Source: Takakia lepidozioides (lineage: Eukaryota; Plantae; Bryophyta). Taken from it: a stretch of DNA of 64,000 bases. Position numbers and translations under genes: made by a program. Under the pieces are notes generated by a model. That model saw nothing but the letters and a program-made list of their open reading frames with translations. It was not told the origin of the DNA and did no database searches. This document shows, piece by piece, positions 5,770-61,731 of this stretch (position 1 is its first letter; each line of letters starts with the position of its first letter). The DNA lies in contig CM060732.1 in the NCBI GenBank assembly GCA_030704615.1, forward strand, positions 18,352,001 to 18,416,000, in the 5' to 3' direction.

Positions 5770-5810
<41 letters not shown>

Positions 5811-6493: not shown

Positions 6494-6528
<35 letters not shown>

Positions 6529-7215: not shown

Positions 7216-7256
<41 letters not shown>

Positions 7257-8990
7257 AAAATCGGCCACATAGGGCATCTCTTTGAGCTTCAATGCACACT
7301 TACGTGGCAGCTCACAGTGTGCGTCAACGCACACAGTTCCCATCACATGTAATGTTGTTTTTTTATCTGAAAATCGGCCACATAGGGCATCTCTTTGAGC
7401 GTTAATGCACACTTACCTGGCAGCTCAAATAGTGTGCGTCACGCACACTGTTTGAGCCCAACTTGGCATTGTTTTTTTTTCATGTGAAAATTGGCCACAT
7501 AGGGCATGTATTTGAGGTTCAATGCAGACTTACCTGGCAGCTCAAATAGTGTGCGTCAACGCACACTGTTCCAGCCAACCATGTTTTTTTTTTTTTTTTT
7601 TTTTTTTTTTTTGGATAATCGGCCATATAGGGCATCTCTTTGAGCTTTAATGCACACTTACTTGGCAGCTCCAGCAGTGTGCGTCAACGCACACTGTTCG
7701 TGTCCACCATGTCATTATTTTTTAATCTGAAAATCGGCCACATATGGCATCTCTTTGAGCTTCAATGCACACTTACGTGGCAGCTCAAACAGTGTGCGTC
7801 AACGCACAACAGCCCACCATGTCATTGTTTTTTTTATTGAAAATCGGCCACATAGGGCATCTCTTTGAGCGTCAATGCACACTTACCTGGCAGCTCAAAC
7901 AGTGTGCGTCAACGCACACTGTTTGAGCCCAACTTGTCATTTTTTTTTTCATGTGAAAATTGGCCACATATGGCATGTATTTGAGGTTCAATGCAGACTT
8001 ACCTGGCAGCTCAAATAGTGTGCGTCAACGCACACTGTTCCAGCCAACCATGTTTTTTTTTTGTTTTTTTTTAATTATTTATTATTTATTTAATAAATTA
8101 GCCACAGAGGGCATCTCTTTGAGCTTTAATGCACACTTACGTGGCAGCTCCAGTAGTGTGAGTCAACGCACACTGTTCGAGTCCACCATGTCATTATTTT
8201 TTCAATCTGAAAATCGGCTACATATGGCATCTCTTTGAGCGTCAATGCACACTTACGTGGCAGCTCAAATAGTGTGCGTCAACGCACATTGTTTGAGCCC
8301 AACTTGTCATTGTTTTTTTCATGTGAAAATCGGCCACATAGGGCATGTATTTGAGGTTCAATCCAGACTTACCTGGCAGCTCAAACAGTGTGCGTCAACG
8401 CACAACAGCCCACCATGTCATTGTTTTTTTTATCTGAAAATCGGCCACATAGGGCATCTCTTTGAGCGTCAATGCACACTTACCTGGCAGCTGGCATTTT
8501 AGAATCGACCACAAAGGTCATCTCTGTCAGGTTCAATTCAGACTTACCTGGCAGCCCAAACGGTGTGCGTCAACGCACACGGTTTGAGCCCCCCTGATTT
8601 GCTTGTTTATGGATATGGAAATTGTGCACCTACGGCTAGTCTGGCAAGTTCATTCGACTCCAAAATGGAAGCTCAAACAGTGTGCGCGGACGCACACTGT
8701 TTGAGCCCCCTTCACTGCCTTTTCTTTTATTTCAAATTGGTCACTTATGGCCACTATGCCATATTAAAATCACACCTTATTGCAAGCTCAAACAGTGTGC
8801 GGCAACGCACACTGTTTGAGCTTCCTTATGTGATTGATTTTGATGTGAAAATCGGTCTCCTGGGGCCACTTTGGCAGGTTGAATCCAATCTTTATTGGAA
8901 GCTCAAACAGTGTGCGGCAACGCACACTGTTTTGAGCCCCCTTCGTGCTTGTTTTTCTATGTGAAATTGGGCCTAACAGGGCCAGTATGC
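1068..8990. repeat. Tandem satellite, ~118-bp monomer (roughly 65-70 copies), each with a 36-bp palindrome; higher-order repeats
   Basis: Recurrent unit GAAAATCGGCCACATAGGGCATCTCTTTGAGCTTCAATGCACACTTACGTGGCAGCTCAAACAGTGTGCGTCAACGCACACTGTTTGAGCCC...poly-T. Near-identical ORFs recur at 1468, 2037, 2599 and 3170 (~562-571 bp period). Monomers at both edges are more degenerate. Confidence 0.97.
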
Positions 8991-10239
8991 ATGCTCAAAA
9001 CTCCCATAGTTGTCAAAACTCCCATGGTATTTGGATTGCCCTCCTTCTGAGACCCCAGCTCAGGATGTGTCTTTGAGGAGAGAGAATGAGCGTATAGCAG
9101 CCACCGCCGCAGCAGCCGACCTCGACATTCATGATAGAAATTTGAGGACTCTTGCAGAGAAGGAGCCTCCCGCTCAGGATACCCCGGTAGAGGTTGAAAG
9201 GCAAAGGGAAAAGATGTTGTTGGTGGTGTGGGGAAAGGAAGGGGTAGGGGGAAGGAGGCACAAGGGCAGATAGGTGGGCTATCACACCTATTTGGACTTC
9301 TTTCAAGTCCTCCTCGGTCTTACGTGCAACCTGTCTATGCGGAGGCACTCGCAACAAGCATGTCCATTCATGGCACTCGCTGTCCGCCCATTGACGGCCG
9401 TGGTAGAAGACGTGGTGTTGGGGCCAGAATCTTTGTGGATGACATAGCACAGGAGGTCGAGAGTGATTCTGATGACTGTGACACTTGATATGAAGTTTTC
9501 TTTTGGTTTTATTCGGGGCCAAATTTGAAATGGGATGGTTGTGTGTCCTTGTTGTCCTGTTTGCAATGTGTGCGTGGGATGCAACTTCATGGGAACAAAC
9601 TATTATTGGAGATGGGGGTTGCATGGACTGCCCGGATTGTTCCTTCAATCTATTTAGAGTTTTGTGGACCTCACAGGCTTGAGTGCATTTCAAAAACAAA
9701 CAATCGACTTTGGTTCGTGTACAGCATTCTCGCATCATTTGCTCGCTTGTCTCCAAACCATTCCTGCTAGAAGAATGCTTGGTGAATCCATCGAGGTGAA
9801 GTCCACGTGATCAAAGATCGTTCAGGCATTCTCAAATCTGGTGAGTATCCATGATGCTCCCGCACATACTTGGCATGTTCACAAAGGTGGTGAGTAAGAA
9901 AAGATTTCGCAGGGATCCGCTTTAGATGATGTCAGTGTGCACCTCCTCACGACGTACCCACATTCCAATGCAGAGTTTGGCTTTCCGTCCTTAAGCTCCC
10001 GACAGTCTCGAGGCTGAGCCAAAAGCCCAGGCCCTCCTGAGGCCTAGTTTTTGGGCAAATTACACACAGCAGATTGATGCTTGTGTGAAGGGATTTCTAG
10101 AGGATATCTGGAAAACATGGATTAATTCTTTATATGAAGGAAAGTCTTTGATAACGTCTAGATGGATGCAATGGATACAAAGGATGGATACAATGGATGT
10201 AATACATCCAGTCTGCATTCCCGGGAAATGGCTGTTCAA

Positions 10240-10375: not shown

Positions 10376-11909
10376 TACTAGCAAAATGGGTTCTTCGAGT
10401 GTTCACTAATCTAAACAGCCCCTGGAGCATTATTGTGCATCATCACATTATGTCTGCCACACCGCGCTCTAGCCCTTTGTGGCCTCCCTCTCTTCGTTGG
10501 ATCGTTCAGGGAGGTAAGTACAGCATTCTTCCCAACTCAGGCTCGCACGCCTGGAAGTCCATTTGGTTTGCTTGGTGCCAGATTCGACCCTTTCTTGTGC
10601 AGCTATGCCCTAAGTCCTTTGACGAAGTGCTAAGACAGCCATTATTTGGCAACTTTAACCGTGATAAAGAGTTGCTTATCCCCTGCTCTAAAAGATGGGC
10701 TCCATAGGAAGCTGCTGGTCTCTCCCATGTAACTTATATTTGGGATGTGGTTTCGGGTTCCTTCATCTCCACTAGTCAGGCAGCAAAAGGATTCTTCTCT
10801 CGTCATATTGCTCTGGGTTGGGATGTGGTGACAGGTGATTTCCCTACCCTTTGGATGCTCTCCTCTCTCAACCTCATGTTCGGAAGTATCCCTGCTGGTT
10901 ATGTTTTTTCCAGGATGGGAAAGCCTTACCTTTCTTTGCTGAGCGCTCACTAGATGGTCAAATTGAAGGTTGTTGCTTCAGTGTTAACTTGGATGGTTCT
11001 CTATTTTCGCCTAAACGAACCCTTCTCCCTTATACTACTCCCCTCCATCTTATCAGGGTTTTCTGCTCCATTTCGGGTAAATTTGATCCTATTCCTTCTG
11101 GATTGTCACTGCCCTCGCAAACCCTGATCTGGTTCCTCTTTGCTCCAGTGAAAGATCTTCAGTTTGACCCAGGGGAGTGGGTATGGATGAATAAAAAGCA
11201 CAATCACCTTTTCTCTTATTCAGTCAAGCTGAGTTACAAGCTTCTCAGACCACCTCGGAAATTTGATCACAAATGGTTTGCCAAGTGGTCTCACATCCCT
11301 GGGCATCGTACTTCCTAGAAGCCGATTTGGGCTGATGTTTGGAAAAAACACAAATCAGCCAAGGTCTCCACTTTCCTATGGAAGATTGTTAATTGAATAT
11401 TGCCAGTTGGTGCTATGTTTTCTGAGAACCCTTCTCCTTGTTCTGTATGCTCTACTCAGGCTCAAGAAACAATTGAACATTGTCTCGTTCAATGCCCTTT
11501 TGCTATGAGTGTTTGGCATCTGATTGCAGTTTTTTATTCTAAGTGGAAGCCATGGTTTGATTTCTCCATTCCAATTCTTCTTCTCAATTTTAAAGGAGGG
11601 ATTATCTGGCATTCATGCCCTGTTTGGGAATCCTTAAGAGGTCTCACTCTCTGGAACCTCTGGAAGAGCATATGCTCTGTGATGTTTGAAAGAACTAGTC
11701 CTTGTCTGAAAAATGTCTTGTTTAGGGTTCCCTCAGATTTATTATCTGAGGCAAGGAAAACGTGGGTGGTGCTTTCAGCAACTTTACAGAGGTGCTCAGA
11801 CCGGAGACACACTCAACTGCTCGTTGTAGATGCATATATTGGTACAACTTTCTTTTCAGATCGTTTTTGTAAAACAAGCGGTTTCGGCATTGTACTGTCA
11901 AAAACATGA
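10376..11909 (+). mobile_element. LINE (L1-like) ORF2 3' fragment with zf-RVT
   Basis: LLAKWVLR motif at ~10376, CSVC...ETIEHCLVQCPFAMSVW, and LWNLWK; multiple frameshifts. Confidence 0.85.
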
Positions 11910-18819: not shown

Positions 18820-20506
18820 GGGGATTGCTAAACCGTGAGCAGAATCCATGAGCAGAATTCTGCTCACGCTTCTGCATATGCTCACCTATGACCGCGGACA
18901 CCTATTCGGCCTAGAAGACCTACTACTGCGGGTTGTGTCTGGTATATCATGCATACGTCATTCATCATTATGGATGAATGATGGATGAACGATGGATGAA
19001 TGGGGGATGAATGTATGTTCGACGAATGGCACATGGATGAATGTAGTTTGTGGATGAATGCAAAACTAAGATACATTTTTGAGTAGTGGTAGCTAAATCA
19101 CCTAGCTCTAGAGTGAACCTCTGCCCACTGGTGAGGGTTGTGATTGTCCTTTCATCAGGTATCAGAAGTCGACATAGTTGCTGACACACAATTGCAAAGA
19201 AGGTGGAGAGGCCATTTGGTGCTTCAAACTAAATAGTTTAAAAACTACAGATTCATTCCGACGAAGAATATTCTATGCTACTGGAGTCGGCGTCCGAAAT
19301 GAAGGCAGAACTGTCTATGAAGACACTAGCCCTGCTTTGCACAAAACCCTCTCTGTTTAAAAGCACAGCAGGGGGAGAAGAGATGAGACTAAATTCCGAA
19401 GCTGCAGCCTCCGCATAATATGACAATTTAAAATCTGCTTTCGAACTTGGGAAAAATTGCGGGTTTGCAAAGAAAGGGAGGAACCGTGGCGACCTTGGGC
19501 TCATGTACACACACACAAACAATGTAAGTCCACATACATTCTGCTGGCCCAACTTGTGAAGGAAAGATGGAAATAGAAGGATGTGCCGTCGTGTCAGTGA
19601 AGTACCACAACTGAACTAGCACTTATTCACATGAGAAATCGGAATCAACATCCAGAGCATTGGGTTTTTGCAGATCCTGCTCCATAACAATGTTCTCGGT
19701 CTGGGTCGAATGCGATAAACCCCCAGACAGAGGTGCGATGACTTGAGAGTAGAGCTGCTCGTCCCACTCCATCCCAAAAGATCCCAAAATGGTTGCAATT
19801 CACTCTCATGATTAAGGTGTCGTCAACGACATCTTAATCCAGGCACTAAGAGGCAGGACTCCATAACTGATGTTGGCAACTTTCAAAAAAATCTGACCAT
19901 GTTAGATCTTCATTCATGGCAAACTCATCCCAAGAGGGCATGGATTTAAGGTATCGTCAACGACACCTTAATTCCATCTCTCAAATAGCAATCAAACAAG
20001 AGAATGGCACAACACAGAACAACACAAGACTTCATTGAAATTGAAAGTAGGGACAAAGGTGCAGAGTTGAGGCCACCTTGAATCAAACGGTATCAAAGGT
20101 TGAGAGAAATGCTCACACCCAAATCTAAAGAAGGCAGAGAGGTGAACTCGTGCTTTATAAATAAACATCTCAAAACACGTACTGGGAATTAAGATGTCAT
20201 TGACGACACCTTAATCCCCAGCACCTGCACACACACTGCCTTACCGCCAAGGCTTGTTCGCCATCAGATTTTTTCGGGTGAATTTTTTTGGGGTTTTTGT
20301 TTTTTCCATGAATTGTCATATGCCAACTCGTACTGGGATTTAAGATGTCGTTGACGACACCTTAATTTGGCACATTCAGGGGGGAAATAAAATAAAATAA
20401 AATAAAAGAGTTTTGTTTTGTTTTTTTTTTTTGGAAAACTTGCTGGGAATTAAGATGGCGTTGACGACACCTTAATCTGGCACATTCGGGGGGGGGGGGG
20501 TGGCGG

Positions 20507-20542
<36 letters not shown>

Positions 20543-21816
20543 GGTTTTTATTTTTATTTTTATTTTTAAACTTGTTGGGAATTAAGATGTCGTTGACAAC
20601 ACCTTAATCCCCACCACTTGCACACACACCGCCAAGGCTTCTTCGCCTTGAAAGTTTTTTGGGTTGAAATTTTTTTGGTTAATATTTTTGGAAAAAAAAA
20701 TTCAGGGATTTTGGTTTTTCCGTAAGCTGTCATGTGCCAACTCGTACTGGGAATTAAGATGTCGTTGACGACACCTTAATCCCGAGCACCTGCACATGCA
20801 CCATGGTTCATTCATGTCGCTCATTTTTCATCCAAAAGTCATCCAACATTCATCCATTCATTTTTTCATTCATCTCAAAACCATTCAACTTGCAGCTTTT
20901 CATCGCACATTCGTACCATATGGTCGTCACCCATGAAGGATTATTCCGTCGGATGGGGTGGAGATTGTGTCCGTACAGTGTAATTTTTGTCCATGGCAAT
21001 ATGTCATCTTCTTCCCTCGGTTGTAGGCTCCCATTCACTAATCTGCTCACGTTTGCAATTTGCTCACGCTTAAGGGATTCTACTCATGTTTACCACTTAA
21101 AGCGTGAGCATGCTCACGTGAATTGCTCACACGGTAGCTACCCTCTTGCAAATGAGACCAGTCACTCTTCATGGATCCACTTTGTTCAAGTAAACCCAAA
21201 CCTTTCTCCAGTTTTGGGCTTATATATATATAAAGTGTTTTATCCTGTTTGGTGAAATTCCCATGTCCAAACAGGGCAGGGGATTAAGATGTCGTTGACG
21301 ACATCTTAATTCGTGCTTCCCTGAGCAGGATTACAACTCCCCCCTATGGTTTTTTCCAGGCAAGATTTTTTTTTTTCTTGCAACGATTTTCATGGGTTCA
21401 TTTCTCATGCTGAGCATGCGATTTAAGATGTCGTTGACGATACCTTAATGTCTGGTCCCTGTGCTTGCTGATCCCTCACGAGACATGCTCATACAGTTGT
21501 CCATAGTCCCCTCATCTGGACAACTTTTCATCCGTGCTTCATCCATCGTTCATCCATTTCACTTTTACATCCATCCCAAATCCATTCATCCGTGAATGTT
21601 TCATCGTGCATTCGTGCCACTTTGTCGTCATGGAGCCTTTCTATCTTCGGTCTGATGGAGCGGAGATTGCGTGTTAGTGAAGTTGGCGTCCACGGCAATA
21701 GGCCCACTTGTTCCCACGGTTTTGGGGTCCGCATCAGAAATCTGCTCACGCTTCGGGGAATCTGCTCACGATCCAGGAATCTGCTCACAGGTTCTGCTCA
21801 CGGCTTTGCTGCCCTC
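18820..21816. mobile_element. Non-autonomous TIR DNA transposon (~3.0 kb), superfamily unassigned
   Basis: Left end GGGGATTGCTAAACCGTGAGCAGAA versus the reverse complement of the right end GAGGGCAGCAAAGCCGTGAGCAGAA (ungapped). Flanked by the direct repeat AGGAG (18815-18819 and 21817-21821). Mirror-image TGGATGAA/TTCATCCA subterminal tracts; no transposase ORF. Confidence 0.8.
19811..21449. repeat. Nine dispersed 28-bp palindromes ATTAAGATGTCGT-TG-ACGACACCTTAAT
   Basis: Copies start at ~19811 and 19945 (CA-centred orientation) and at 20188, 20339, 20449, 20581, 20753, 21283 and 21422 (TG-centred orientation). Confidence 0.92.
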
Positions 21817-22416
21817 AGGAGGGAGCTCCGTCACACCCCCCCCCCCCCCCACCCCCCACCCGACAATGAGGATGTTGTTGGCTTTGTGTCTTTTATAGGG
21901 AAAACGAAAAAAACTCTGCTCAGTCCCATGGCAGCGACCTCGCCATCTGCTCTGCCAGGATCTTCTATGTAGGTAAGCTCAGCTTACTCCGCCTTCCCCT
22001 GGTTCATCTGCTGCTTCCCTACTCGCTTGCCCTCCAGGTGTCAAAGTGTTTGTTCGAAGGCACCTCTGGGTAAAGCGTTGCCACACTTCCTCCATGATAC
22101 TGGGTTTCAACCCTTGTCTGAAGGCTGTACATGGCCAGGACTCTGGGTTTGTCGAAAATCACTCTAAGCTGCGCTTTATCCCTACTAGAAAGTCTCAATC
22201 TGTCTCTTTGATTGGGGAATCTAAGAGAAGATCTAGAAAAGACTCTAGGAGAAGTCTATGGGTTGGTATTATCACCCAAGCCACTGTACTTCCCCCCCCC
22301 TTCTAGTTTCTATTGGATTTCCTCTCTTCTTCTCCACGACAGAAGAACTGTCTTTCTATTTCCTTCCTCAGGGCCATCATTTTGAGAGGATCTCTCGAGC
22401 CCTTCCTCTTCAATTG

Positions 22417-23115
22417 ATGTCTTTTAGCATAAGGTCATGGAATATTAGGGGCATTGGGTCGGATGCCAGTGCCCCTAAGAAGTCCAGAATTGAAAGGTGG
22501 GCGGCCTCTTTGCTATCAGACAACTCCATTATCTTCTTACAGGAACATAAATTGAATGATTCAAAGATTGCTTCATTAGGTCAGTTCATTTGGCCTTCTA
22601 ATCGTGCCTGGTGGAATAGAACTGTGCTAGATTCGAGAGGTGGAACATATGTCCTGATCTCCCCCGGTTTGGCCAGTCACATTTTCGCAGTGGACACCTG
22701 GATCATTGGTCGCGCTCAGTTTGGCACGCTCTCCATTCCTGGATCAGGCTGCAAGATTGGTTTCATCAATATTTATGCTTCTAAAAGCATTTCTAATAGA
22801 ATTTCTTTTTTGCAGATGCTTAATTCTAAGGTCTTGAGTTATCCTAACATTGACCAGTGGATTCTGGCTAGGGATTTCAATATGACAGATAGGTCCGATG
22901 ATAGGTTGGATCCTGGCTCCTCCAGCCTCTCCCCCGACAAACTTAGTGCTTGGGAAGCCCTTTGTTTTTCTGTTGGCTTCATTGATGTTTCCATTCCTAG
23001 TGATAATGAGCTCCGTTTCTCATGGACTAATTGCAAGGCACCTCCTGAGCTGGTCATGGCTAGACTAGACATGGTGTACTGCACCTCTGGTATCACCTCT
23101 TGGGCAAGTCCGTCT
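22417..23115 (+). mobile_element. LINE ORF2 N-terminal AP-endonuclease fragment
   Basis: SWNIRG, FLQEH, INIYA, DFN, FSW and RLD motifs; truncated before the poly-A run at 23131. Confidence 0.9.
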
Positions 23116-24153
23116 CCTTTGGGGCCTGCCAAAAAAAAAAAAAAAAAAAAAAAACTTTTTTTCACTCGTTTCGTGGGACCTTGATGGGGAGGCTGGGCTC
23201 TGTAGAACAACGGTTATGAGCTAGCTGATCCGGCAGAAAAGTCGGAATTGCCTCCTTGTTGCGTTTTAACAAAGGGGATTACCCCCCTGCAGGTAATCTT
23301 TTCAGGTTTTCAGCCCAATTCTTAACTATGGGGGAGACCAGCCTGCAGGTAATTCCTTTGGACAGAATGTTGTTGGGGCCTATATGTACCTCTATTTGCT
23401 CCATATTTGAACCTTCAGCGAATGGTGTGGTTTCCTGAGGTGGTTCCATTATGAGGAATGGCTAGTGGACATAAGGAGGCACTGGCGGACCCGGTGGAGG
23501 CTTGCATGGGGCCTTGGAGGCCAAGTTTCATGAGCTCGTGGAGGGCAGTTTGAGGAGTGTCTACAGGATGCTCACATGGTCATGCAAGTGAGAGAAGAGA
23601 GGAAAAAAGAGGGTGTTGGGATGAGAGCGTGTTGGGGATAGACATTGCTTTAGTTTCCCTTCCTCGTAGTTTTCCACCTTCTCTGTAGGCCGAGACCTTT
23701 CCGTAGGTGGAGGCAAGAGTCAGTCCGGGTTTGGGTTGGGTTGCAGGAGCGACACCGTGGAGTTGTTTTTGGTGTGGGGGAGTTGTTGTTTTCATTCTTG
23801 TGTTTGGATCCCCTCCACATCTGCATGCTTGATTGTGCGCCATGCTAGTTTTATGTGGGCGCTTGATTTTATAAGTGGTGGACTCGGGCTTAATCGCCGA
23901 TCCCACCCTAGAGCATGTTGTGGCTGGGTTGATGAACAGTCAGACCATCTTTGTTTATCATGTGGTGAGGTTGGTGGTGATGACCAGCCAACTATGGGAG
24001 TGCCGGCGGTGGATGCAGGTGCAGGTGCAGGCTATGTTAGGAACCTAGTATTCCAAACCATAAGCCGCATCAGGTTCTCTACCCGGTTACCTTGTGGAGA
24101 GGGGGTTAGAGACAAGTTCTTGACCGGTTGAGTGTCAGTTTGTCAACACGGAG

Positions 24154-25734
24154 GTGCCACTAGTTGCTGGGGAAAGTGCCGGTACAAGCTCTAGCGATAC
24201 TAGCGGGTATACGAGACGAGGTGTGTGGTTTAGGCCACCTTCACCTCCTGTGTCTTCTACGGAAGGTTCTGATTCGGATTGTGAATCAGGAGGACTCACA
24301 CCGGTGGTGCAAGTTGTTTTCTTGCCATTATTGTGGGTCACAATGGAGGAGATGTATGAAGCCACCAAGGGGCCACGTAAGTACTCTGGGGCGGTGGGTA
24401 CCATCGAGTTGGATGATTTTATCCAAGAGTTTGATAGTTGGTGTGACTTGCAGCAAATGCGCAATCCACAACTGTTTACGCCTTTCATGGCATGGAAGGG
24501 GCTATTTCAGCACCTTGAGGGGCCGCCCATGGATGATTACCATGAGTTTAGGCGGGGGCACGATGTTTTGATCGAGGAGTGGAGGATGTACTGGTCACCC
24601 GACTATGTCTCCATCACTAGAGGCATTAGAGGCACTAGAGGCACAAGGGCAGCAGCCACACTGGCAGCTGCACCAGCAGTAGCAGCTACAACAACAGCTT
24701 CCACAAGCACTAGTGGGACTAGTGGTATAGCAACTATGACATCCACCCAAGCTACTGCTGCACCAGCACCAGTGGCGGTGCCTGCCTTCAACCCTGTTGT
24801 GGAGTTCTTTGAAGAGTTGAGAAGGAACTACCAAGGGAGGAGGACAGAGAAGTTGAGGAGCTTGCAAGAGTTCCAATGGAAGCCTATTGAGAGCTTGAGG
24901 GAGGCTTTCACTCGCATGAGGCGCTTGATAAATGTAACCCAAGGGGTTACGGAGGCTTAGGCAGTCCAATTCTGGTATGGCATATTGGACAAAGAGCTGA
25001 GGAGAAGGGCGCGGGATGCAACTCTCCTACAAGCGGCCCAACCCACCTTAGCAAATGTGTTTTTGCTGGCAGAGCGGATAGAGCTCAACATGGTGGAGGA
25101 ACGAGTGGTTATGGTGGGATTTGCTAAGGAGACACCACGCTCAACGTGCTCAAGGTAGCAAGGGGGCTCAGGTGAAGCCCAGGGAAGGGCAGAGAGGACC
25201 TCAGATTTAGGGGTCTCTCCCTTCATTTGCAAGCCAACAGGAGGATCCCATGTCAAGAAGGATTGCCCAGAGGGAGGCAATGGTTTGGCACCGGCACAGC
25301 CTCCACAGTTGCAGTGTGGGCATTGTGGCAAGTACGGGCATGGAGAGGCCCAGTGCTATGGTTTGCATCCTGAGTTGCACCCAGGCCAGTTCCAAGGGAA
25401 CAATGGTGGCCGGGGGCGAGGTGGAGCAGCCCAAAGAGGACGAGGTGCAGGCCAAGGGCAAGCTCAACATGGCCAAGGACGCGGAGGTCAGGGTGGTGAC
25501 CAAGGCATGGCCAACCGGCTTCAGCAGCTAGAGCAGAGGCTCGCTGCCATGGCCACAGCTCAGATGGTACCGGCTCCAAGGCCGGATGGTCCACCTCTTG
25601 CTCCTGAGGGAGGGGACATGGGAGGCATGGGATTCATGTGCGGGGCAGCACTACCACTAGTGAGGGGTGCCACTACCACTACCACTGTAGGTGGGGCACC
25701 ACTACCACTAAGTGTGGGACAGGACTACAACTAA
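24154..25734 (+). pseudogene. gag: Gag with CCHC zinc knuckle (copy 1)
   Basis: KYSG...LDDFIQEFDSWC, ESLREAFTRMRRL, CGHCGKYGHGEAQC and an RGG-rich tail; premature TAG at 24958 and frameshifts. Confidence 0.85.
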
Positions 25735-26032
25735 TGCAAGTGGAGTCAGCTGCGGCAGTGACTCGAGGAGCAGCACGAGTTCCTGAGCCACGGGGTGCGG
25801 AGGTGGAGTTGGATCCACAGCGTGGGGAGGCAAGCCGTCAGGCCAGGCTTCCTCAGTCATTCACATTGGCGGAGACAGTGTCGACGCCGTCCATGGCACC
25901 TAGTTCTTGCCTGACTGTTACCGAGGCGGAGGTTATTATGCCATTGGGGAGAGCTACACGGGCAGCACCACTACCTAGTGTTGCCAAGGCTACGGCAGCT
26001 AGTGTGCTGCTGGGGGCGGCCACATCTGTGTG

Positions 26033-26330
26033 CCAGGCGCCTTTGGCAGTGGTCAACAAGGTGGGTCAACCACGAGCAGCACTACCTACACTGCTCAGTT
26101 TCCCAGGATCACATGCTTTCCGGGATAGTGGACCTGGCCTCCTGTGGGATGCTAAGTTGCAGCAGTTAGTGGAGCCTAATATCGACGAGCAAGAGCGGGC
26201 TATGGGTTTTTCCACTGGGACCACGGCGGTGCCTTCTCTTTCTGAGGCATCACGTCGTCAGGTGTTGGGGCAAGCAATGGATCTCAATTGCTTGACCTAG
26301 ATTATCAGCTTGGCTATGGCTGAGCAACGT
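26033..26330 (+). pseudogene. C-terminal part (motifs IX-X) of a DNMT3/DRM-like C5 cytosine methyltransferase (copy 1)
   Basis: EPNIDEQERAMGFSTGTT...SEASRRQVLGQAMDLNCL resembles DNMT3 EMERVFGFP.HYT...SRLARQRLLGRSW. Same reading frame as the RT at 26772. Confidence 0.85.
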
Positions 26331-26771
26331 AGAGTGCGGAGTGCACTTCCCTTGACGGTCTCTCTGCCTACTGAGACAATACAGGCAATGAGTGGGGGCG
26401 AGCCGGTGAGGACCACGGGGTGTAGACATCCATGGCACACGTGGGAGGTGCTCGAGGTTCAGAGGGAGTTGGCAGCCAAGGCAGCTGTGATGGATGAGGT
26501 TGGGGACTCTTCTCGGGTTGAGGAGGTCCTCAAGGATGAGATGATGGGGCAGGATGAGGCCTTGTCATTGACTGAGCAGGCAGAGAGTACTGCTCAAGAG
26601 GTTGCGGCATAGCAACCACGGGACGCGTCCTCTACCTCTAAGTCTGCTGGACTTAAGGTTGCAGTTACGGAGGACAATTGGGAGCCTGACATTGGACCCA
26701 TTGTCACTGGAGGAGAGAGACGACGTATACGGCGGTTCCTGAGGGCTTACAGGAATTGCTTTGCCTTCAGT

Positions 26772-27748
26772 ATGAAGGATTTGGGAGCACTGAAGGGTCA
26801 GGAGATTCGTATTGAGTTGGCCACGGACACGCCAATCTTTTGGAGACCCTATAGATACAGTGACATGGAGAGGTCTTTGATTCAGATGAGGACTCAAGAT
26901 CTCTGGGAGGCTGGTTTGGTGGAGCTCTTTGGAGGAGAGTATGCCTCAGCCACGGTGATGCCAGCCAAGAAGGATGTCTATGGCAATTGGACGGAGAGAC
27001 GTATGTGCGGTGACTACCGGCCTGTAAATCATCAGACCAAGTCCGATAAGTATGCCATGCCCACACCGGAGGAGATCTTTGATGCCATCGGGCATGCCAA
27101 GGTCTTTAGCACTTTGGACTTGCGGTCCGGATATCACTAGTTCCCGATCAAGGAGGCGGACAAGCAGAAGACGACATTCTGGGGGATCAATGAGCACGGG
27201 AAGGATTGCCTATATCAGTGGCGGTTCTTACCATTCGGGCTTAAGAACGCTCCTGCAAAGTTCCAGAGAGTCATGGACAGGATTCTAGCAGGGGTAGATT
27301 TTTCTCGGTGCTACATAGATGACATCATCATCTTTAGTGCTACGGTGGAGGAGCACGAGAGACACCTTCAGGTGGTGTTTGAGCGCTTGAGAGCGCACGG
27401 ATTGAAATTACATCCGGGGAAGTGCAAATTCTTCCACAACCAGATTAAGTATCTGGGCCACATGATATATCCTGGAGGATTGGGGGTGCAGCAGACTAAG
27501 GTAGAGGCCATTGCACAGATTCCACGCCCCACGGATGTGAGCCGAGTTCGAACTTTTTATGGGGTTGGCAAACTACTATAGACGGTTTGTCAAGGGATTT
27601 AGTGCTATTGCAAAGGCTCTAACCAAGCTGACCAAAGTAGACCAGGAGTGGCAGTGGGAAGATGAGCAAGAGCGAGCTTTTCAAAAGCTCAAGGCGAGGT
27701 TAACCTCGGCGCCCATCTTGAGACGACCTATCAGGGGGCGTCCATTTT
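26772..27748 (+). pseudogene. pol: Gypsy reverse transcriptase (copy 1); RNase H deleted
   Basis: RMCGDYR, LDLRSGYH, PFGLKNAP, YIDDIII, YLGH. The sequence jumps from GRPF to the integrase zinc-binding region. Confidence 0.95.
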
Positions 27749-27799
27749 CAAGTGGGAGGGGATACACCTGCTTCGAGTGTGGGAAGATGGTCACCCATC

Positions 27800-28998
27800 A
27801 CAGCGTGCACGATTAGTGCGGCATGCCCATGAGGAGTTGGGGCATTTTGGAGTGCGACGCACTCATAGTTTACTGCAGGGGCAATATTGGTGGCGTGGTA
27901 TGCACACAGAGGTGTAACAGTTCGTGGCTAGGAACATGGTGTGTGATAGGGTGCATGCTTCATTCAACACCCCTACACCACAGTTGCATCCATTACCCAT
28001 CATGGGATTGGGCTACAGGTGGAGTCTTGACTTTGCAGGGCCTTTGCCACTGACGATGCGTCACCACAGAGATGTGTTGGTGATGGTGAAGCACTTCTCC
28101 AAGTGGATTGAGTTGGTTCCATTGCCTGACAAGGCTTGTGAGGGGGCTGCGTATGCATTCTTGGATCGTGTGCTTAGCCGATTCGGTGCTCCAGCTGAGG
28201 TACTCACGGACCAAGGGAGAGAGTTCTTGGGGGAGTTTCAGGCTTTGTGTGATAAAGCCTTGATAGACCACCGTACCACTTCTCGGGATCATCCTGAGGC
28301 TGATGGCTTGGCAGAGAGAGTGGTTCAGACAGTGAAGAGGGGTTTGCACAAGTATGGCTTGTAAAAGGGACACCTAGGAGATTGGGATCTTCAGGTACCT
28401 TGGTAGCCATGGGCTACAGGTTTAGCAAGCAAGCATCATTTGCCTCCTTCTCACCATATTTCCTTCTCTTTGGCCGAGAGCCGGATTTGCCTGCATCTAT
28501 TTGCAGGGAGGCTGCAGTAGTCCTCAACCTTGATGATCCGGATGTGTGGACACAAGCATGAGCCCAGCGGGCAGAGTTGTTCACTATACGTGGAGGGGGA
28601 TATCGGCCAGGTGTTCGGCGTTTCCACCCTGGGGACTATTGTATGTGTAGCAGACAGCGCCTACGACCTTGGATGTCACCGCATGACGTGTGATTCTAAG
28701 GGTCTGGGAGGTGTTGTCTTCAGGAGTGTTGATTCTGGAGGGTCGAGATGGCATGGTATGGAAGGACCATGTGCGTAATTGTGCGCCCTGTCACCTTCCA
28801 CATGTGGATGGGAGGATAGATCCCAACCTTGCAGTGGTATCTGCAGGGTTGCGTTGCATGCTATGTGGACATGCTCGTGGTGCCGCCACTATGCTGGTGT
28901 ATGATCGATGCTCAAGAGGTTGGCACATGGGATGCTTGACACCACCTCTTGAGAGGGTTCCTGATGGAGATTGGTTATGTCCACACTGCTTGGGATAG
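27800..28998 (+). pseudogene. Gypsy integrase with C-terminal PHD finger
   Basis: HEELGHFG...YWW, LDFAGP, TDQGREF, GLAER. PHD sequence CMLC...VYDRCSRGWHMGCLTPPLERVPDGDWLCPHC at 28855-28989. Confidence 0.92.
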
Positions 28999-29265
28999 TG
29001 GCAGTGGATATGACTAGTGGCAGCTAACAAGACATGGGAGGCCAAGCTCATATGAGTCAATACCCGAGATCTCAGGCTCAAGTTCACAGGTTGCAAGATG
29101 GCGACTAACGATGGGGCAACTCTTGTACTCGGCCTCTTGATCCATCGAGTTTGAGTATAGTAGGAACAGTGGTGGAGGACTTAGTGAGGCTATGACCACT
29201 ATCACATCTTATGGCTAGCTGGACTTAGAGGGACCTAAGCGCCAGCTAGGGGGGCGATTGTGATG

Positions 29266-29495
29266 GACTAGTGGCAGCCTAGTGGTTGGACTAGTAGCTA
29301 CACTAGTGGTGGCTAGTGGCAGCCTAGTGGTGGACTAGTGGCTGCACTAGTGGCGGCTAGTGGCAGCCTAGTGGTTGGACTAGTGGCTGCACTAGTGGTG
29401 GCTAGTGGCAGCCTAGTGGTGCACTAGTGGCTGCACTAGTGGTGACTAGCGGTTGTCTAGTGGCAGCCTAGTGGTGCACTAGTGGTAGACTAGTG
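29266..29495. repeat. CTAGTGG-based tandem repeat (~45-bp unit, about 5 copies) at the LTR start
   Basis: Unit CTAGTGGCAGCCTAGTGGT(T)GGACTAGTGGCTGCACTAGTGGYGG starting at ~29267, 29312, 29357 and 29402. Confidence 0.9.
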
Positions 29496-30587
29496 ATAGA
29501 TTAGTGTTTGGTGTGCACATGTGTTGTGTGGTTTTGGACAGCGATGTAGTTGTGTAGTGATATGTATGCGCACGACATCCCATCTGAAAAGCAAGAAGCG
29601 TGTGTACCGTGGAGGCCGAGTCGAACTCAGACGAGTTATCCCAAAAAGCTCCAAAGTGTACTGTAGTCTCGCTTGAGAGCTGAAATTGAAAGGGCTGCTC
29701 AGCGAAGATATTACCAACGAGCTTGAGGGAGAGCTCCACTTCTTTGACGGTAGAGTAGTAAGTGGCATGGTGGGTGACAACTTTTTATTTTTTTCATTTT
29801 GGCAAGGGCGCTCCAGTCGCGATATATTTTGGGGGGTGAATACAGAGGTGGCGTCACGTCTTATGTCCACCTGGCTACACATATAACAAATATTGTGCAA
29901 TATGGCGAATTTTTCATAACTAAAGAATATTATGCAGGCGACACATGTCAAATTGAGGCAGAAATAGTGGGCGAAATTCCCCTTTGTATTGTGGCAAACT
30001 GGCTACCATGAAGAACCCAAGGTAGCACTTTGGGCACCATTGCCCAAATTCATAGAGCAAAATGGCACCACTCATTCAAATGGAAAAAAATAGTCTCAGG
30101 CACCATAGCCTAATTTCAGACTGAGGCCCATGCATATCAGCAGCCCCCCCACATTCAAGCGCCGCCACCCCTCCTCCACAACAACAAAGCAGCATATCAA
30201 CGGCCCCCCTACATTCAAGCAGCGTTGAAGGCCCGCTCCAAAGTTTTGTACAGTTGACCTTAGATAAATGTTATCTACTTTTTTGTTATGTTATCCTTAA
30301 TGTTATGAAATCTTGGCTCTGTAAAACATAATAGTTTGTTGGTTTTGAAAAAATAATAGTTTTGAAAATAGATATGATAAATGGTCCTAATAATGCTCAC
30401 TTTCAGCATGCACCTGTCACATTTTGCTTAACCTAATGGAATTTCAGTTTTTCTTTTACATGGGTCCTTTTTTTTTTACAGTTGGCAACCCATACATATT
30501 TTTCATTATGTGAAATCTATAAAATTGAGAATAACCCATTAGGTTTTCATGCAATGGTATCCGATCTCTAGAAACATAGAAAAATCC

Positions 30588-32859: not shown

Positions 32860-34024
32860 TTAGGTACCCAAAGGCAACAAAGGTGGAGGTAAACCTTGTT
32901 CCACCGATTCCTTCACTGCTTGCCTATATCTTCTGTTGATGGAGTCTTCGTCACAGTCACTGTCTTGAGGAGCACTTACCTTCTTACCTTTGCGTCGAGT
33001 CCGCCCAGACGATGAAGCAGCTTTGCTCTTCCGTGCTACTTCTTTCTCCGCCCTTACCCTCTCACGAATTGCTTTGGCAATCTCTTTTTGTTGCTGCAGT
33101 TCTTCTTGCCTTTTAAGACATTCAGCTTGCTTTTGTTCTTTGTCTTTGGCCCTCTGGAGGCGGCCAACTTCCAATTTCTCAAGCCTTTTTTTCTTCCTTT
33201 CCTCTATATCAAGTTTGCGTTGTTGGCCAGCTAAGACCTTTGCTTCCTTCTGCAACCGTTGCTCTCTCAAATACTCCTCATACTCCGGGCCAGTGATGCA
33301 CGCTTGCGATGCAATAGTCTGCCCTCGATCTTCTATAATACGAGGTGGCGGGAGGCTTGGTAATGTAAGAAGATCCACAAGGGTTGGCCTAGGCTCATCA
33401 ATGCTAAGTTGTGGACACACGTTGTGATAACTCTTCTTCTTCACTAAAGACCATCATGTCCAAGAGAGACTCTGGTGGATTTTCAATGTTGTCATTGAGA
33501 GGGCTCTCATGGGTTGATTCTTCGTCAGACCCTGAGTCTTCATGATGCCCTGAACTTGAGGTTGAACCCCTGTCAAGGTCATTGGAGTCAAATATTGTAC
33601 TTGGGCCCATATGAGAGTCAAGAGCATGTGGATCTAATGGAAATATCCCTGTTTTGCCGAACCCTGCTTTAACGTTCTCCACAGTGCAAGCTGCCTCTAG
33701 GGCCTGAGATGCCAAAGTTGCCAATGCCACTTTATTGCCATTGCCATTCAACCACTTTGGGTTCGCTGCAATCATCTCTTCCCGCAGCTGGCCGAACCTC
33801 AGCTTGAATGCTCGGAAGACTGCCACATCCAATGGTTGAAGCCTATGTGAAGTGTGAGGGGGTAGTAGGGCCACTTGTAAACCCATATCTCGCGCAATTT
33901 TCACAGCCTCTTCTGTGAGATGGCTTCCATGGCCATCCAACAGGAGAAAATGTGGGTTGTCAGGACTTACTCCTCCAGGCACGGACTGCTGAAAGTGCTT
34001 TAACCACTCAATGAACAGGTCATT
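32860..34024 (-). pseudogene. pogo transposase, C-terminal half
   Basis: NNDLFIEWLKHF, LLLDGHGSH, LPPHTSHRLQPLDVAVFRAFK, GFGKTGIFP, then a K/E/R-rich coiled tail after a frameshift. Confidence 0.92.
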
Positions 34025-36666
34025 ATTCGGGTAGAAGCATGGTACGGGCCATCCAAAAGCGGCAACTTGCAGTCCATAAAAAATGGACATATGAAGTGGA
34101 AACGCAGCACGCGGGAACGAAGTCGGAAAAAGTTGAATTTATTGTAGCCGTTGATTGTTTTTGTACATCAAGTTATTACCGTCGATTGGAGGTCGCCTTC
34201 ATCGGGGGGTGGCTGGAAGATGGCTGGTCGCGTTGGGCTAGACTGAAGTGCGGGGACGACGAGCTGCCATGTATGACGCGCGATGCACAACTAGAAGCTA
34301 GCCAGGACGTACGAGTTGATTGGGATTGGGAATGTGAAGAGATTGGGAATGTTTGATCACAAAAGTTTGCTTACCATTTTGTAAGATTTTTAGGGTTTAG
34401 CTTGTGATTGTTTCATCAACTCTACGCATGCGTGAAGTTCATTTTCATTTCTGTGTTTCTATGGGCGCGCTTGGGTGGTGGTAGCAGAGGAAGCGGGCGA
34501 TGCGAGCAGAGCTATAAAGTGCAACATTGTGTGTTGCTGCCATAGCACAGAGGCACGAGGGTAGAGGAGTAGAGGAGGAGCTTGGGCGGGGGTGCTCGGG
34601 TGTGCCATCGCTAGAAAAGCACTTGATTGTTGCCTGACTCTACCCTTGGTAAGTTTCATTCAAGTTCGTGGCCAGTCGATTTGGTGTGCGGCATATCTGG
34701 AATTAGGTTCTTGCAAGCATGAATGTTTCTGTCGTAGCGCCTGGAAAGAGATGGCAGATTGCCATCCAAATGATGATCATGACTAGTAACTTTCCACTTG
34801 AACTCTACAAATACGAGCCACCGCTGCGATCTTTCACGCCTGATTCTATACTTTGCATTGTGCATTTGAACACAGGTGGTTAATTGCCTTTCTTGAATCT
34901 TGACAGTGATGTCTGTTTTGTTTATCATTCTCTATGGTGTGTTCCTTGTTGGGTTGGTATTCTCCCATTTTTTCCCTGCCCAGAGAAAGATATACTTACG
35001 TCTTGTTAGTGAGTCTAGTTGAGCTAATTTTTGGAGCTACCTGCTAGCAATTCATGTTGTAAAACCCTAAAAATTTAGGCTACACAGTCATTCATACATG
35101 ACAGTTTGTATGTGACCATTACGGTGAGGGTACCTGCACGATGATTGATCACAAAAGTCTGCTTACTATTACCTTTGTGAGGGGCTCACTCCAGTAGTTG
35201 GAGCTACCTTGATATAAACAATTGGTTGCATCAATCTGCTGTGTCTGAGAGCTACCTAGCAATTAGACCCCAACAGGGCCAGGGCCTTAGGCTCAGAATC
35301 GATACTTTGAAAGTTAGTGAACAGAGGTGCAAGCACTATACGGTCCTGAAGAGGGTGGCTCTCTGATGAGAATACCCGGGACACTGTTTTAGAAAATGGG
35401 TATTGCCTTCAGCGCCCACACATCGAGCATTGACAATCTCCCTTCCTGTCTGCATGTTATTTGTTCAAGAATTGACCCCCTGCCCTGGGGTTAAATTGTA
35501 GTTTAATGCTGAGGATAGGTAGGCCTTTCAGCCTAAGGTTCACCCATGTCACAAACTGGAAACAAGTTCAGGGATGTTATTCCTAACTTATTTTTGTTCA
35601 AGCATTATTTCATGCTTCAGACGTGGCCTTTAGACACTTCAGCCTCCAAGTGAGCTTCATCCAGCAGGGTCAGTTCTTCCTGCCCAAACTTCAGGTACTT
35701 GAAACATCTCCTCTACATTTTTTTTGCCATGACTTCAAACTGTTTAACAGGACGGTCTTGCTTCCAAGAAATAGAGTTTGTCATCTTAGGGTATCTGGTA
35801 TTAGGCACTGAGCCCACCATCCCTTGAACTAACTCATGACTTTGAGAGCTCGAGGGTGGTGCGCCAAACTCGCCTTGAACAGCCGCATTAGCTATTGTAG
35901 AGCACGCTGACATGCTCTCTTTGAGCACCGAAAGCTGAATGGATTTTAAAGTTTTAGGCATGGTTGGAGTTGCTCTCCCACACGGCAATGCCTACTCCAA
36001 GGTAGGCCAACATGGTCGTTGTAACTTCAGTATTAATCCGTCTGCAGTGGAAACATTTGAGTGAGAATATCCAAAGTTTGTGTTTAGTGTTTGTTTGTGT
36101 TTGTGTGTGTTCATCACAGTTACAACTGGAGGAGAACTCCACAGCAAGATATGTGCTCGAAGGGAGCACACAATTGTGGCATTTAATGATCGTGGGGAGG
36201 GATGAGGGGATCTGGCCTAATCTAGCCTACCATGTAGACTTGTGAACTGTTGTCGCTGGCTGGTTTCAAGTGAGACTGCATGCCCTTTTTTGTCAAGTTG
36301 CATTTGTATATGGCTTGTACAAATGTGGTCGTTGTTATAAAAGGGACGATATCAGCGAGGCAGGGAAGAGTAGCAGATGTAGCATAGGTAGCTGAATGTA
36401 AAGTTTGTCACACTGGTAGTGGGTACCAAGTCCAGTCTATTCAAACAGGTGAACAGACCCCTGAGTTTGTGTCACTTATCTTTGTTGTTATGACTTCAAA
36501 ACTACTCTCCAACGAGCTACCCTTTTTGTGTTATAGTGAGGGGGGGCAAGTGGATCCCATTTTTGGAGACCTGGACAGTAACCTATTTTCTAGTGTGCAG
36601 AAGAAGGGCCCAACAGTGTGACTGTTGATTGCCAAGGAATTTTGAGTGTCTGTGTTGAAAATGTTT

Positions 36667-42488: not shown

Positions 42489-44122
42489 GTACAAGCTGAG
42501 TACTGTACACTTATGCTTTTATCACTAATGTTAGAATAACTCTTGGTTGTTATTTTGCCAATTCATGCTCAAGTTTCTGATGCAATTTAACTCCTCTATG
42601 CATGATATATAGGACATACATCTGGTATACGTCGCTGAATTATGAGACAGAAGTATAGTAAGATCTTGAGCATTGTGGGTGGCAATGCAGGGCATGTGAT
42701 TAGCAGACCGCCCCTATGAGGACTTTACCACTCGCTGCTGTCATTGTGGGGATAGGTCTCGTCTCTTCATCAGTACTTGTTCATTTATGACATGGCCACT
42801 TTGGGAGGCAGGCACCAAGCAAAGGCTAGTCTTTCATCGATGGGGTAGAGGTTGGTGCCACGATATGTCAATGTTGAGCAGTTTAGAACTGGCAGATGAT
42901 GTGTTAGTTGTTACCATTAGGTGCCCAGCCAAGTCATGTGATGTGGATTTGCCCTTGTGGTTTCTCGAGTAGCTCACAATGGACATATGACATGGATTGA
43001 GGGCATGCACATTACTGTTCTTTGTTCATTTTCTACTGATAGGTATGCTGTACTTGTTTGAGTAAGGCAGCAATATCATGACAGTGGTTTTTGAAAACAA
43101 TGCACTCTATTTTGCTATCTGTTTCTGATAGGAATTGCTAGAATACCTTCGTGCAGGCAGTCTACTGTCATTCATTCTATGTGAGAAAGATGGCTTTGAA
43201 AGGCCCGTTGCTTTTCCTGCCTGTGCTACAATTCTCCAACATGCGTGGGTTTAACAGAGTCTGCGCCTGAAATTTGACTAACTGGTGGATGGTATGGCTA
43301 CATCCGGTTGCGTACCTCTATCCTCCTTTGCTTGACTCTGATAGTTCATTTACAAAACTGCAATCGGACACCAACAATATAAGTCTCCATCTCTCAATGG
43401 TAATTAGTCTAGCTCCTTGGTGAAGATCCCTGGTATGGCGGACCGAAGCCTGGCCAACAGACAGCATTCCCATCATTCCCCTCTCTATAGGATGGCAGCT
43501 CTAAGCAATCTACCTTCGCTCAATTGAGCACATAAATGTGATTTGTAGTTCTGCCTGCCTAATTCTTCAGAGAGTTTGATAGTATCTCTCAACTTCATCC
43601 AAGCCCAAAAAATACTTGTGCGTATGATTTAATGCATGCAGTTCAATATGCAAGGATGGCTTAACTTTGAAGAGGGAATCAAGACAGTATGATAGCAGGT
43701 CTGCTGTTGTTCCACTTGATTGTCCCACTGTGTTTGGAAGGCTGTTAGCAACTCAGACTAGAATGGCACCCGGCTTCAGCGTGTTGAGGATCATGTGCCT
43801 TGAGGAACATGTGTCTTATTTTTACAGCTATGATCTTCTCCACTTTCTTATCCAAAACGAGGGTGTGGAACTTTGAAAGGACCAGGAAGTATGACAAGTT
43901 GTAGGGTTTATGATGAGGTTTTGCCATATCTTCGTAGCCAGGCACCTTTGCCAACCAGTTGGTATGAGAAGGGGGAGGACAACAGATTGTGTGATCAGAG
44001 AGGAAGGCAGACACACTCCAAATAACAAGAAAACCAGACACATTAAATTGAAGTTCCCCGCCTTGTGAAGTGATACACCACAGCACTAGTGCGGGAATTC
44101 TAGTCACCAGGCACATTCAATT

Positions 44123-48706: not shown

Positions 48707-49475
48707 ATATTGAATTTCCAGAAAAAATGTATTGAGATGGTATCCGTTGTCCACTTGCATTGATGCAAACTACAACTGTCAGCCATTCTCGATTACCAGA
48801 ACTCCTAGTCAAAACTGCCTTGCTTCCTTTCCTTGCAATGACTTTGGCTCCACCAATCTTTATGCTGGCTGAAAGTCCTGTTTCGTCGACATTCCACACA
48901 TGAGATGGTAAGAACTTGGACCTGGCATATGTTTCACCAATGAACTTGTAGAAGGTATTACATCGCTCTGGACTCACATTCTTTGCTCTCTTAGCATCGA
49001 GGCCTTGTGGCGTCCGCAAAACAAGGTGTGGGTGCCTCAATTGGAAAAACCTCCACCACTTATTCCCGGGCATTCCAGCTTTTAAAGGGGTGGAACGACC
49101 TTCACAAATTTGCTTGACTTTGCTTTTTAACATCTGCAAAGATACACAATGGGCTACAACTTGCATATCCTCACACCATTTCACCAGTGCACTTTCTTCA
49201 TCTGGTCTCAAAGCAGTGGGTGGGCCAAGTTTCCTGTATGTCACCTTCTTTGTTTTCCAGCTACGGATGGTAGATTCAGGAATGTTGTACAATCTTGCAG
49301 CTGCGCGAAGGCCCATTTGCCTTGACTGAATGCTTTCGAGAGCTTCTTTCATTGATTCTTCTGTCCACTTGCCACGCTCCTTACATTTTTGTTTGAATCT
49401 CGGGGCAGGTGTCATGACACGATGAACTCTCTTCCCCCACACTAAGGGAGAAGACCCCTTGCACGCTGTCACCAT
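48707..49475 (-). pseudogene. pogo transposase, N-terminal half (HTH_psq, CENP-B-type HTH, first catalytic Asp)
   Basis: WTEESMKEAL...LRAAARLYNIPESTI, KWWRFFQLRHP, VWNVDETG, REWLTVVVCINASG...YIFSG. Confidence 0.93.
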
Positions 49476-61730: not shown

Positions 61731-61731
61731 A

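Follow-up and report, generated by a model that had tools for sequence, protein, structure and literature searches.

Does a retrotransposon that ends its integrase with a PHD finger and also encodes a DNA methyltransferase (DNMT) pair a histone reader with a writer of DNA methylation, or does the finger serve some other purpose at that position? The question is raised by a stretch of 64,000 nucleotides of Takakia lepidozioides DNA (the window, analyzed at its full length), in which positions 28855–28989 of the forward strand encode the pattern C-x2-C-x11-Y-D-x-C-x4-H-x2-C-...-W-x-C-x2-C with the literal motif LTPPLERVPDGDWLCPHC, followed closely by a stop codon at 28996–28998. The original prediction took this for a C4HC3 PHD finger with the third Cys changed to Tyr, and the Pfam search that it called for confirms the assignment: PF00628 matches at 36.2 bits (E 6.2e-9) against a curated cut-off of 24 bits, with 47 of 47 profile positions matched. 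Seven of the eight ligands are present in the window copy and all eight in most relatives. Sixty-five solved sequences match the finger at E<=0.001, the nearest being the PHD fingers of CHD4, KDM5A/B, ATXR5, PHF21A, BAZ2A/B, and UHRF1. The features of the element to which the finger belongs, and of its second copy in the window, are as follows.

24343–25901 (+): Gag region, frameshifted (tblastn with P0013 residues 1–490; weak PF03732)
26034–26450 (+): C-terminal remnant of a DNMT3-like cytosine methyltransferase (tblastn with Marchantia P0013; mapping of L021 ORF1)
26610–26618 (+): in-frame TAG CAA CCA between DNMT and reverse transcriptase (RT), a conserved stop in CAR-YYA readthrough context
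26676–27747 (+): RT and the start of RNase H (PF00078 E 1.1e-25; PF17919, positions 1–31 only; tblastn)
27795–28361 (+): integrase H2C2 zinc-binding region and DDE core, with premature stops (PF17921 E 4.5e-11; PF00665 E 2.9e-12)
28615–28812 (+): SH3/Tudor-like β-barrel of the integrase C-terminal region (residues 93–158 of the P0002 model, by offset from Cys1)
28855–28989 (+): C4HC3-type PHD finger with Tyr as its third ligand in this copy, at the C-terminal end of the integrase (Pfam, solved-sequence search, family alignment)
29248–29577 (+): polypurine tract (29248–29254) and one terminal repeat unit (29259–29577, TG...ACA), the end of the element
59952–64000 (+): second copy, ~79% identical, with Gag, DNMT from motif IV, TAG CAA CCA, and RT

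The window copy is a dead Gypsy-DNMT3 element with nothing functional of its own, and frameshifts and stops are found throughout it. Its alignment with the Marchantia protein P0013 leaps from residue 490 to residue 1104 (tblastn), indicating that the protease and DNMT motifs I–VIII were lost in an internal deletion of ~610 codons. Most of RNase H is deleted as well, with loose contig ends at the deletion, and the barrel that precedes the finger is broken by one frameshift and two stops and carries a terminal C-x2-C-H motif at 28780–28794. The finger had been expected to end the pol frame; it does so in intact relatives such as L021, but in the window copy it lies in a 103-codon remnant (28687–28995) behind frameshifts and stops, and no open pol is left. 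The end of the element is marked in contigs from public runs by loose ends at 29577 and by a drop in depth from ~1.1e6 to ~240 after 29597. In the second copy, the DNMT occupies 61732–62565 (PF00145 E 3.3e-6) and TAG CAA CCA 62776–62784, and the copy meets the end of the window inside RNase H, before the integrase. No 5′ terminal repeat was found by blastn for either window copy. Approximately where the 5′ end of the first copy would be, there is a LINE endonuclease fragment at 22249–23155 (+) (PF03372 E 1.8e-6) that runs directly into a poly(A) run, and tandem units of 11–45 bases built on CTAGTGGC lie inside the terminal repeat at 29268–29506.

The Tyr codon at the third ligand is an outlier. 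Contigs from four public runs, which represent no more than two samples, were compared over 27600–29800. In run X1, another letter is read at this codon by 84 contigs, accounting for ~99% of the depth at that site, although summed contig depth is not usable as copy number; runs X2 and X3, from the same sample as X1, and five contigs of X5 likewise differ from the Tyr codon. Because contigs of public runs read another letter, the Tyr represents decay particular to the window copy, and the finger is real but broken.

The family was searched with two queries. The first contained only the 56 residues before the finger and, since it excludes the finger itself, is a non-circular test; it gave 10 matches, nine of which have a PHD finger at E<=0.001, eight above the cut-off. 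The second, the integrase core, gave 224 matches, the best 120 of which were examined. Among these best 120 of 224, 65 relatives run at least 235 amino acids past the core and 64 of the 65 have a PHD finger, the lone exception ending in the linker, whereas the finger is present in 6 of the 55 shorter relatives. The chromodomain PF00385 occurs in none of the same best 120 of 224 according to precomputed domain lists, nor in the frames of the window, nor in 45 relatives that were scanned, and the window element therefore lacks the domain by which a chromovirus is recognized. The claim that the integrase ends in a PHD finger and not in a chromodomain thus holds family-wide, replacement of a chromodomain by the finger being one possible history, and the absence of the finger from other members, which had been named as evidence to the contrary, is not what is seen. 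The named relatives come from liverworts (Marchantia, Calypogeia, and Riccia), Sphagnum, Klebsormidium, and green algae. A motif arisen by chance, or a host exon that the window copy alone had picked up, would be in keeping with the broken state of that copy and with nothing else; it is refuted by the linker and integrase-core searches, in which the finger has the same place in liverworts, Klebsormidium, Tetrabaena, and metagenomes, and by the PF00628 match (E 6e-9), and its probability is negligible.

Similar results were obtained with 80 metagenome loci collected by RT, a redundant set in which many loci belong to the same subfamily or represent the same site across assemblies. A DNMT is present in 55 of the 56 loci with enough upstream DNA, a PHD finger in 36 of the 42 with enough downstream DNA, and both in 24 of the 30 that are long enough on both sides. 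Five of the six loci that miss the finger are interrupted or end before the linker, and one has the linker only. No member with full-length frames that clearly lacks the DNMT was identified among the relatives. The PHD finger is under purifying selection in the family: pooled Nei-Gojobori dN/dS, from pairs that are not independent, is 0.29 for the finger (57 pairs, pS 0.15–0.4), 0.34 for integrase, 0.35 for RT, and 0.46 for DNMT. Among near-identical copies, the value for the finger is 1.0 (99 pairs), as expected from decay after insertion. Several of the entries from Marchantia, Calypogeia, and Sphagnum among P0011–P0061 are frames of the Gypsy-DNMT3 retrotransposon family, although UniRef labels some of them DNA (cytosine-5)-methyltransferase or PHD-type; this accounts for a set of proteins of these three genera that match PF00145 or PF00628.

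The element has the Gag-PR-RT-RH-INT order, Ty3-like RT, DDE integrase, and target-site duplication of Ty3/Gypsy, and the best solved relative of the L021 Pol is Ty3 (E 4e-98). Its methyltransferase domain is intronless and unpermuted, as seen from the PF00145 match of the second copy and from the order of the motifs in L021. We take this domain to be DNMT3-like, a label based on known motifs and on PMC5890265, with no host DNMT3 on the tree. DIRS-like repeats were found through the relatives: split direct repeats of the form A...B-A-B are complete in L016 (1621–10826), L025 (the same site as L016), and L056 and partial in L036 and L078, whereas the window copy retains one B unit only. The termini are TGTCATG...CA(C/T)GACA (L016, L025, L056, and L078), and a 4-bp target-site duplication is present at two of three distinct complete sites among relatives. 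Such an element joins DIRS-like ends to integration by a DDE integrase. The combination of Gypsy domains with DIRS-like repeats was described for KnitGypsy-Dnmt3 (de Mendoza et al. 2018, PMC5890265), a name that also appears in bioRxiv 10.64898/2026.05.21.726589, and the split repeats and the 4-bp duplication place the present element with that kind; the finger almost certainly ends the integrase of a Gypsy-DNMT3 (KnitGypsy-Dnmt3) element. The two share, as far as the consulted parts of the published account go, the Gypsy domain set, the intronless unpermuted DNMT3-like domain, the DIRS-like repeats, and purifying selection on the DNMT. They differ in that the present family occurs in liverworts and Sphagnum and has its DNMT on the same side of a conserved stop as Gag, not in an open Pol frame. 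The word PHD is absent from the text of PMC5890265 and from three text supplements (Fig. 4c lay outside this check). Klebsormidium nitens P0070, which is among the integrase matches, has the same terminal PHD finger and may or may not be KnitGypsy-Dnmt3 itself, and a Klebsormidium integrase-PHD protein lies on the window's side of a quick integrase tree.

To which class of reader the finger belongs was judged from 72 of 88 PHD-bearing proteins, the other 16 being truncated or degenerate and left out of the residue counts. Fingers labeled as readers of H3K4me3 are of the ING/BPTF type and are recognized by the column of the cage Trp. This Trp, two residues before the His ligand and taken as the mark of methyl-K4 reading from PMC5415848 (consulted in part), is found in none of the 72 fingers, of which 68 have Gly there, and no finger of the set is thus of the H3K4me3-reading kind. 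Asp follows Cys3 in 67 of the 72 and P-x-G-x-W is present in 58, the window copy having both. The Asp and the P-x-G-x-W pocket serve to hold the H3 N terminus. With no cage, Asp after Cys3, and P-x-G-x-W, the finger has the sequence features of the broad class that binds unmodified H3 and includes ATXR5 and PHF21A, and on these residues it is of the unmethylated-H3K4 type. In the fingers of BAZ2, KDM5-PHD1, and UHRF1, an acidic wall is used as well, and neutralizing both wall residues of BAZ2A lowers H3 affinity 17-fold, according to the parts of PMC5415848 consulted. The wall positions, five and six residues before Cys3, were set from a KDM5B alignment and the same source. The window finger has Ala-Ala there, acids are present in 0 of its 7 closest proteins, and it falls outside the acidic-wall subclass. 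A wall acid is found in 28 of the 72 fingers overall and in 14 of 18 of algal type; it is absent from all 24 rows of the window's group on the quick integrase tree (SH-aLRT 99) and from a 17-row group with the Klebsormidium protein but is kept in 26 of the 32 rows on the algal-type side. As judged from this distribution, the acidic wall is lost in the window's lineage. Few fingers have Asp after Cys4 (5 of 79), and a basic residue stands immediately before Cys1. The original prediction of a BAZ/KDM5/UHRF1-type reader of unmodified H3 is therefore upheld for the unmethylated-H3K4 class, with no cage in 72 of 72, but not for the acidic wall that those three proteins use.

The natural relative P0002, when modeled (mean pLDDT 80.5), superimposes on solved PHD fingers at rmsd values of 0.5–2, and its best fold match is the PHD finger of ATXR5 bound to H3 (Z 9.9, rmsd 1.8, 53 aligned). 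ATXR5 likewise has no acids at the wall positions of the alignment; because this wall-less finger was solved bound to H3, the loss of the wall lowers the case for H3 reading without removing it, and histone reading by the finger is plausible. In the model, an SH3/Tudor-like barrel precedes the finger. The place of the finger, after this barrel and at the end of Pol, is fixed in the family, and a CxxCH motif adjoins it in 62 of the 88 PHD-bearing relatives. Integrase C-terminal domains are SH3-like. The barrel was also considered as a Tudor reader of methyl-lysine, and this was rejected: its matches, at Z 6–8.6, do not favor Tudor chains over KOW, PWWP, or SH3-like ones.

In each window copy, the poorly conserved spacer between DNMT and RT contains an in-frame TAG CAA CCA. 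The intact relative L021 has adjoining frames of 1369 and 1047 codons with a single TAG CAG TTA between them (L021:5083–5091); the first encodes Gag, protease, and DNMT with motifs I, IV, VI, VIII, and X in order, and the second encodes RT, RNase H, integrase, and PHD, giving the order Gag-protease-DNMT-stop-RT-RNase H-integrase-PHD. The conservation of the stop is judged from the two window copies and related loci, 42 of 54 close loci being usable for the comparison once 9 short ones and 3 duplicates were set aside. A stop followed by CAR is present at the DNMT-RT site in 37 of the 42, with strict CAR-YYA in 6 and CAA CCC in 31, 7 of the latter having TAA; two of the remaining loci have a doubled stop there and three are rearranged. 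By comparison, CAR follows only 8 of 302 decay stops located within domains, and a stop between DNMT and RT is found in none of 19 loci of the distant group. In TMV and other plant viruses, CAR-YYA is by itself enough to direct readthrough, and the frames of MuLV, SIRE1, and Tca2 are also divided by in-frame stops, the last with a similar stop that gave no readthrough in yeast (PMC2194720, consulted in part). As in TMV, MuLV, and SIRE1, the stop here lies in frame between two frames, with CAR-YYA in the window copies and six loci. In contrast to those systems as described there, it follows a methyltransferase, so that Gag-protease-DNMT would be the putative major product, and it has CAA CCC in 31 loci. 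A conserved stop and CAR between Gag-protease-DNMT and RT-RNase H-integrase-PHD suggest programmed readthrough and separate proteins, and we consider such readthrough probable; splicing or an internal promoter could make Pol instead. No description of a readthrough stop in Gypsy-DNMT3 elements was found in the literature searched (outside subscription journals, Repbase, and figures).

The position of the DNMT varies within the family. In the window's clade, it lies beside the protease and before the conserved stop, ~1,100 residues upstream of the PHD finger; in algal-type relatives, a single open frame places it after RNase H and ahead of the integrase, ~650–700 residues from the finger, and these DNMTs group separately on a quick DNMT tree (22 rows, SH-aLRT 99). 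The DNMT therefore has two positions, one preceding RT and the other following RNase H, and the PHD finger is always on the integrase. Both positions were seen in P0041–P0055 and others and in L051–L080. A single move of the DNMT and two captures are indistinguishable because the DNMT and integrase trees are quick ones without bootstrap or outgroup. Many distant members have W-E-C, F-E-C, or W-S-C at DNMT motif IV instead of P-C, with the Cys kept. In an ADD-type unit, the reader is adjacent in cis to the catalytic domain. Here ~1,100 residues and a conserved stop intervene, and because the DNMT shifts place while the finger stays with the integrase, an accessory of the integrase is a better reading of the finger than an ADD equivalent. 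The pairing of a candidate H3-tail reader with a DNMT stands insofar as a DNMT3-like domain co-occurs with the finger (24 of 30 loci), but the likeness to ADD does not. Nor is the DNMT supported as a de novo methyltransferase in the form first stated; it is a putative enzyme of that kind, and the window copy has lost motifs I–VIII.

The algal-type proteins P0009, P0041, P0044, P0048, P0053, P0126, P0128, P0130, P0131, P0132, P0136, P0143, and P0171 usually have a Tudor-like β-module after the PHD finger and then a SAM-methyltransferase-like tail with the motifs DPWxGxG and IVxSP[WP]F. For P0044, the tail is similar to N6-methyltransferase clusters of phages, with a score of 0.94 and with PF02384 present in 36% of one of the clusters, which is a lead only. 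If these assignments hold, an algal-type Pol would be a single Pol with DNMT, PHD, Tudor-like, and DAM-like modules, unlike the chromodomain-bearing EpiLTRs.

The explanation that we favor overall, at somewhat better than an even chance, is that, in working copies, the PHD finger tethers the integration complex to H3 tails without K4 methylation and that the DNMT, encoded before a leaky stop, methylates the element's own new DNA. Readthrough would put the DNMT at the level of Gag, in excess, and supply the PHD finger only with Pol, and cleavage by the protease would leave the finger on the integrase and release the DNMT as a separate protein. The finger would bind the H3 N terminus weakly, the Ala1 pocket and the Asp after Cys3 being kept and the acidic wall lost, and new copies may thereby avoid H3K4-methylated promoters instead of homing actively to heterochromatin. 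The DNMT would act on the element's own cDNA. Taken singly, tethering to H3 tails is slightly favored, and self-methylation of element DNA is an evenly balanced proposition. A wider scenario, in which the leaky stop loads particles with a DNMT3 that pre-methylates the cDNA, the PHD-tipped integrase lands it on H3K4-unmethylated nucleosomes, and the copies arrive silenced and seed heterochromatin, in a lineage extending from bryophytes to algae whose algal members would add a kit of four modules in one Pol (DNMT, PHD, Tudor-like barrel, and adenine-methyltransferase-like domain), is tentative and, as a whole, rather unlikely.

Three other roles for the finger were weighed against tethering. It may no longer read histones and may instead be a structural or protein-binding part of a barrel-CxxCH-PHD module, or bind another chromatin protein or DNA. 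The loss of the wall in both the 24-row and the 17-row groups, when most algal-type-side rows keep it, the basic residue just before Cys1, and the conserved CxxCH would all suit such a role, but the Asp after Cys3 and the P-x-G-x-W are retained in most fingers and ATXR5 was solved bound to H3 without wall acids, and we regard a non-histone role as unlikely. Guidance or activation of the DNMT by the finger, as by ADD in animal DNMT3, with the two forming one reader-writer unit on H3K4-unmethylated chromatin, is still less probable. The two domains travel together, they share one open frame in algal-type relatives, and a readthrough product would carry both before cleavage; nevertheless, RT, RNase H, and the integrase core as well as the stop separate them in the window's clade, the DNMT changes place while the finger is fixed to the integrase, and plant and algal DNMT3s have no ADD in the consulted part of PMC12344493. 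Finally, a finger that binds H3 might act after integration or on the donor copy, recruiting remodelers or protecting expression, and have no part in target choice. Such functions have been proposed for PHD fingers borne by transposable elements (PMC9940879 and PMC8557442, each consulted in part), but the finger is fixed at the integrase C terminus, where chromoviruses carry a targeting chromodomain (PMC6673714, likewise in part), which makes this role quite improbable.

PHD-bearing Gypsy elements, Gypsy-DNMT3 elements, and elements with a reader plus a DNMT are already published separately. PHD fingers in retrotransposons have been called widespread (PMC6673714); Gypsy-7a_cRei has one in its Gag-Pol and inserts between genes 2.6 times more than chance, a bias that may be due to selection according to its authors (PMC9940879). 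The present element shares with Gypsy-7a_cRei, CR1, and Chlamys elements an accessory PHD finger, proposed in those cases to limit harmful insertions (PMC9940879, PMC6673714, and PMC8557442), but the parts of these papers that were consulted do not ascribe a DNMT to them. The literature search did not bear out Selgy elements as carriers of a PHD finger. REM1 is reportedly a further PHD-bearing retrotransposon. As in chromoviruses (Neumann et al. 2019, PMC6317226), a chromatin-reader fold is at the integrase C terminus; unlike the chromoviruses described in the text consulted, the window and the best 120 of 224 relatives have no chromodomain, and split repeats replace ordinary LTRs. The EpiLTRs likewise unite a histone reader and a cytosine methyltransferase in one retrotransposon (bioRxiv 10.64898/2026.05.21.726589), but, in the portion of the preprint consulted, theirs are a chromodomain and a DNMT4-related enzyme, with DAM, whereas here a PHD finger accompanies a DNMT3-like enzyme and only algal-type relatives add an adenine-methyltransferase-like tail. 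The PHD-DNMT3 pairing was not found described in the literature searched (outside subscription journals, Repbase, figures, and preprint supplements). The main additions here are the family-wide PHD counts, the finding that the window's lineage has lost the acidic wall, and a conserved stop that is likely leaky.

Should the finger prove to target integration, plant retrotransposons would have a second histone-reading route to site choice besides the chromodomain, and this could be tested in Marchantia and Chlamydomonas, for which both active elements and chromatin maps are available. The conserved stop alters the reading of the published Gypsy-DNMT3 elements, in that the methyltransferase would be a Gag-level protein packaged in particles. 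Such a location would fit methylation of the element's own cDNA and gives reason to retest the DNMT of the Klebsormidium KnitGypsy, which had no activity in yeast, a result called inconclusive by its authors in the part of PMC5890265 consulted.

The surroundings of the element in the window are rich in transposons. A TE-only neighborhood had been taken to fit the steering of integration into heterochromatin; this argument is not supported as it stands, since TE-rich surroundings cannot separate targeting from retention. Seven of the 66 other window frames of at least 105 codons matched anything, a search that short exons would escape, and the matches are to transposons (LINE, Tc5/DDE, and copia) together with one weak, sub-threshold match. 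They include a LINE fragment at 11397–11906 (+), two Tc5/pogo-like transposase fragments at 33407–34138 (−) and 48708–49481 (−), and a decayed copia element at 55600–59030 (−). The weak match, at 43748–44116 (−), is to a phosphatidylinositol transfer protein (PF02121 E 6.7e-4, below the cut-off) and may be a host exon, in which case the description of the neighborhood as TE-only would need qualifying. A 116-bp satellite array with higher-order units and more than 55 copies occupies about 1000–9000 of the window, and a cluster of short repeats at ~19800–21470 has the core TTAAGATGTCGTTGACGACACCTTAA, a near-palindrome that occurs in both orientations.
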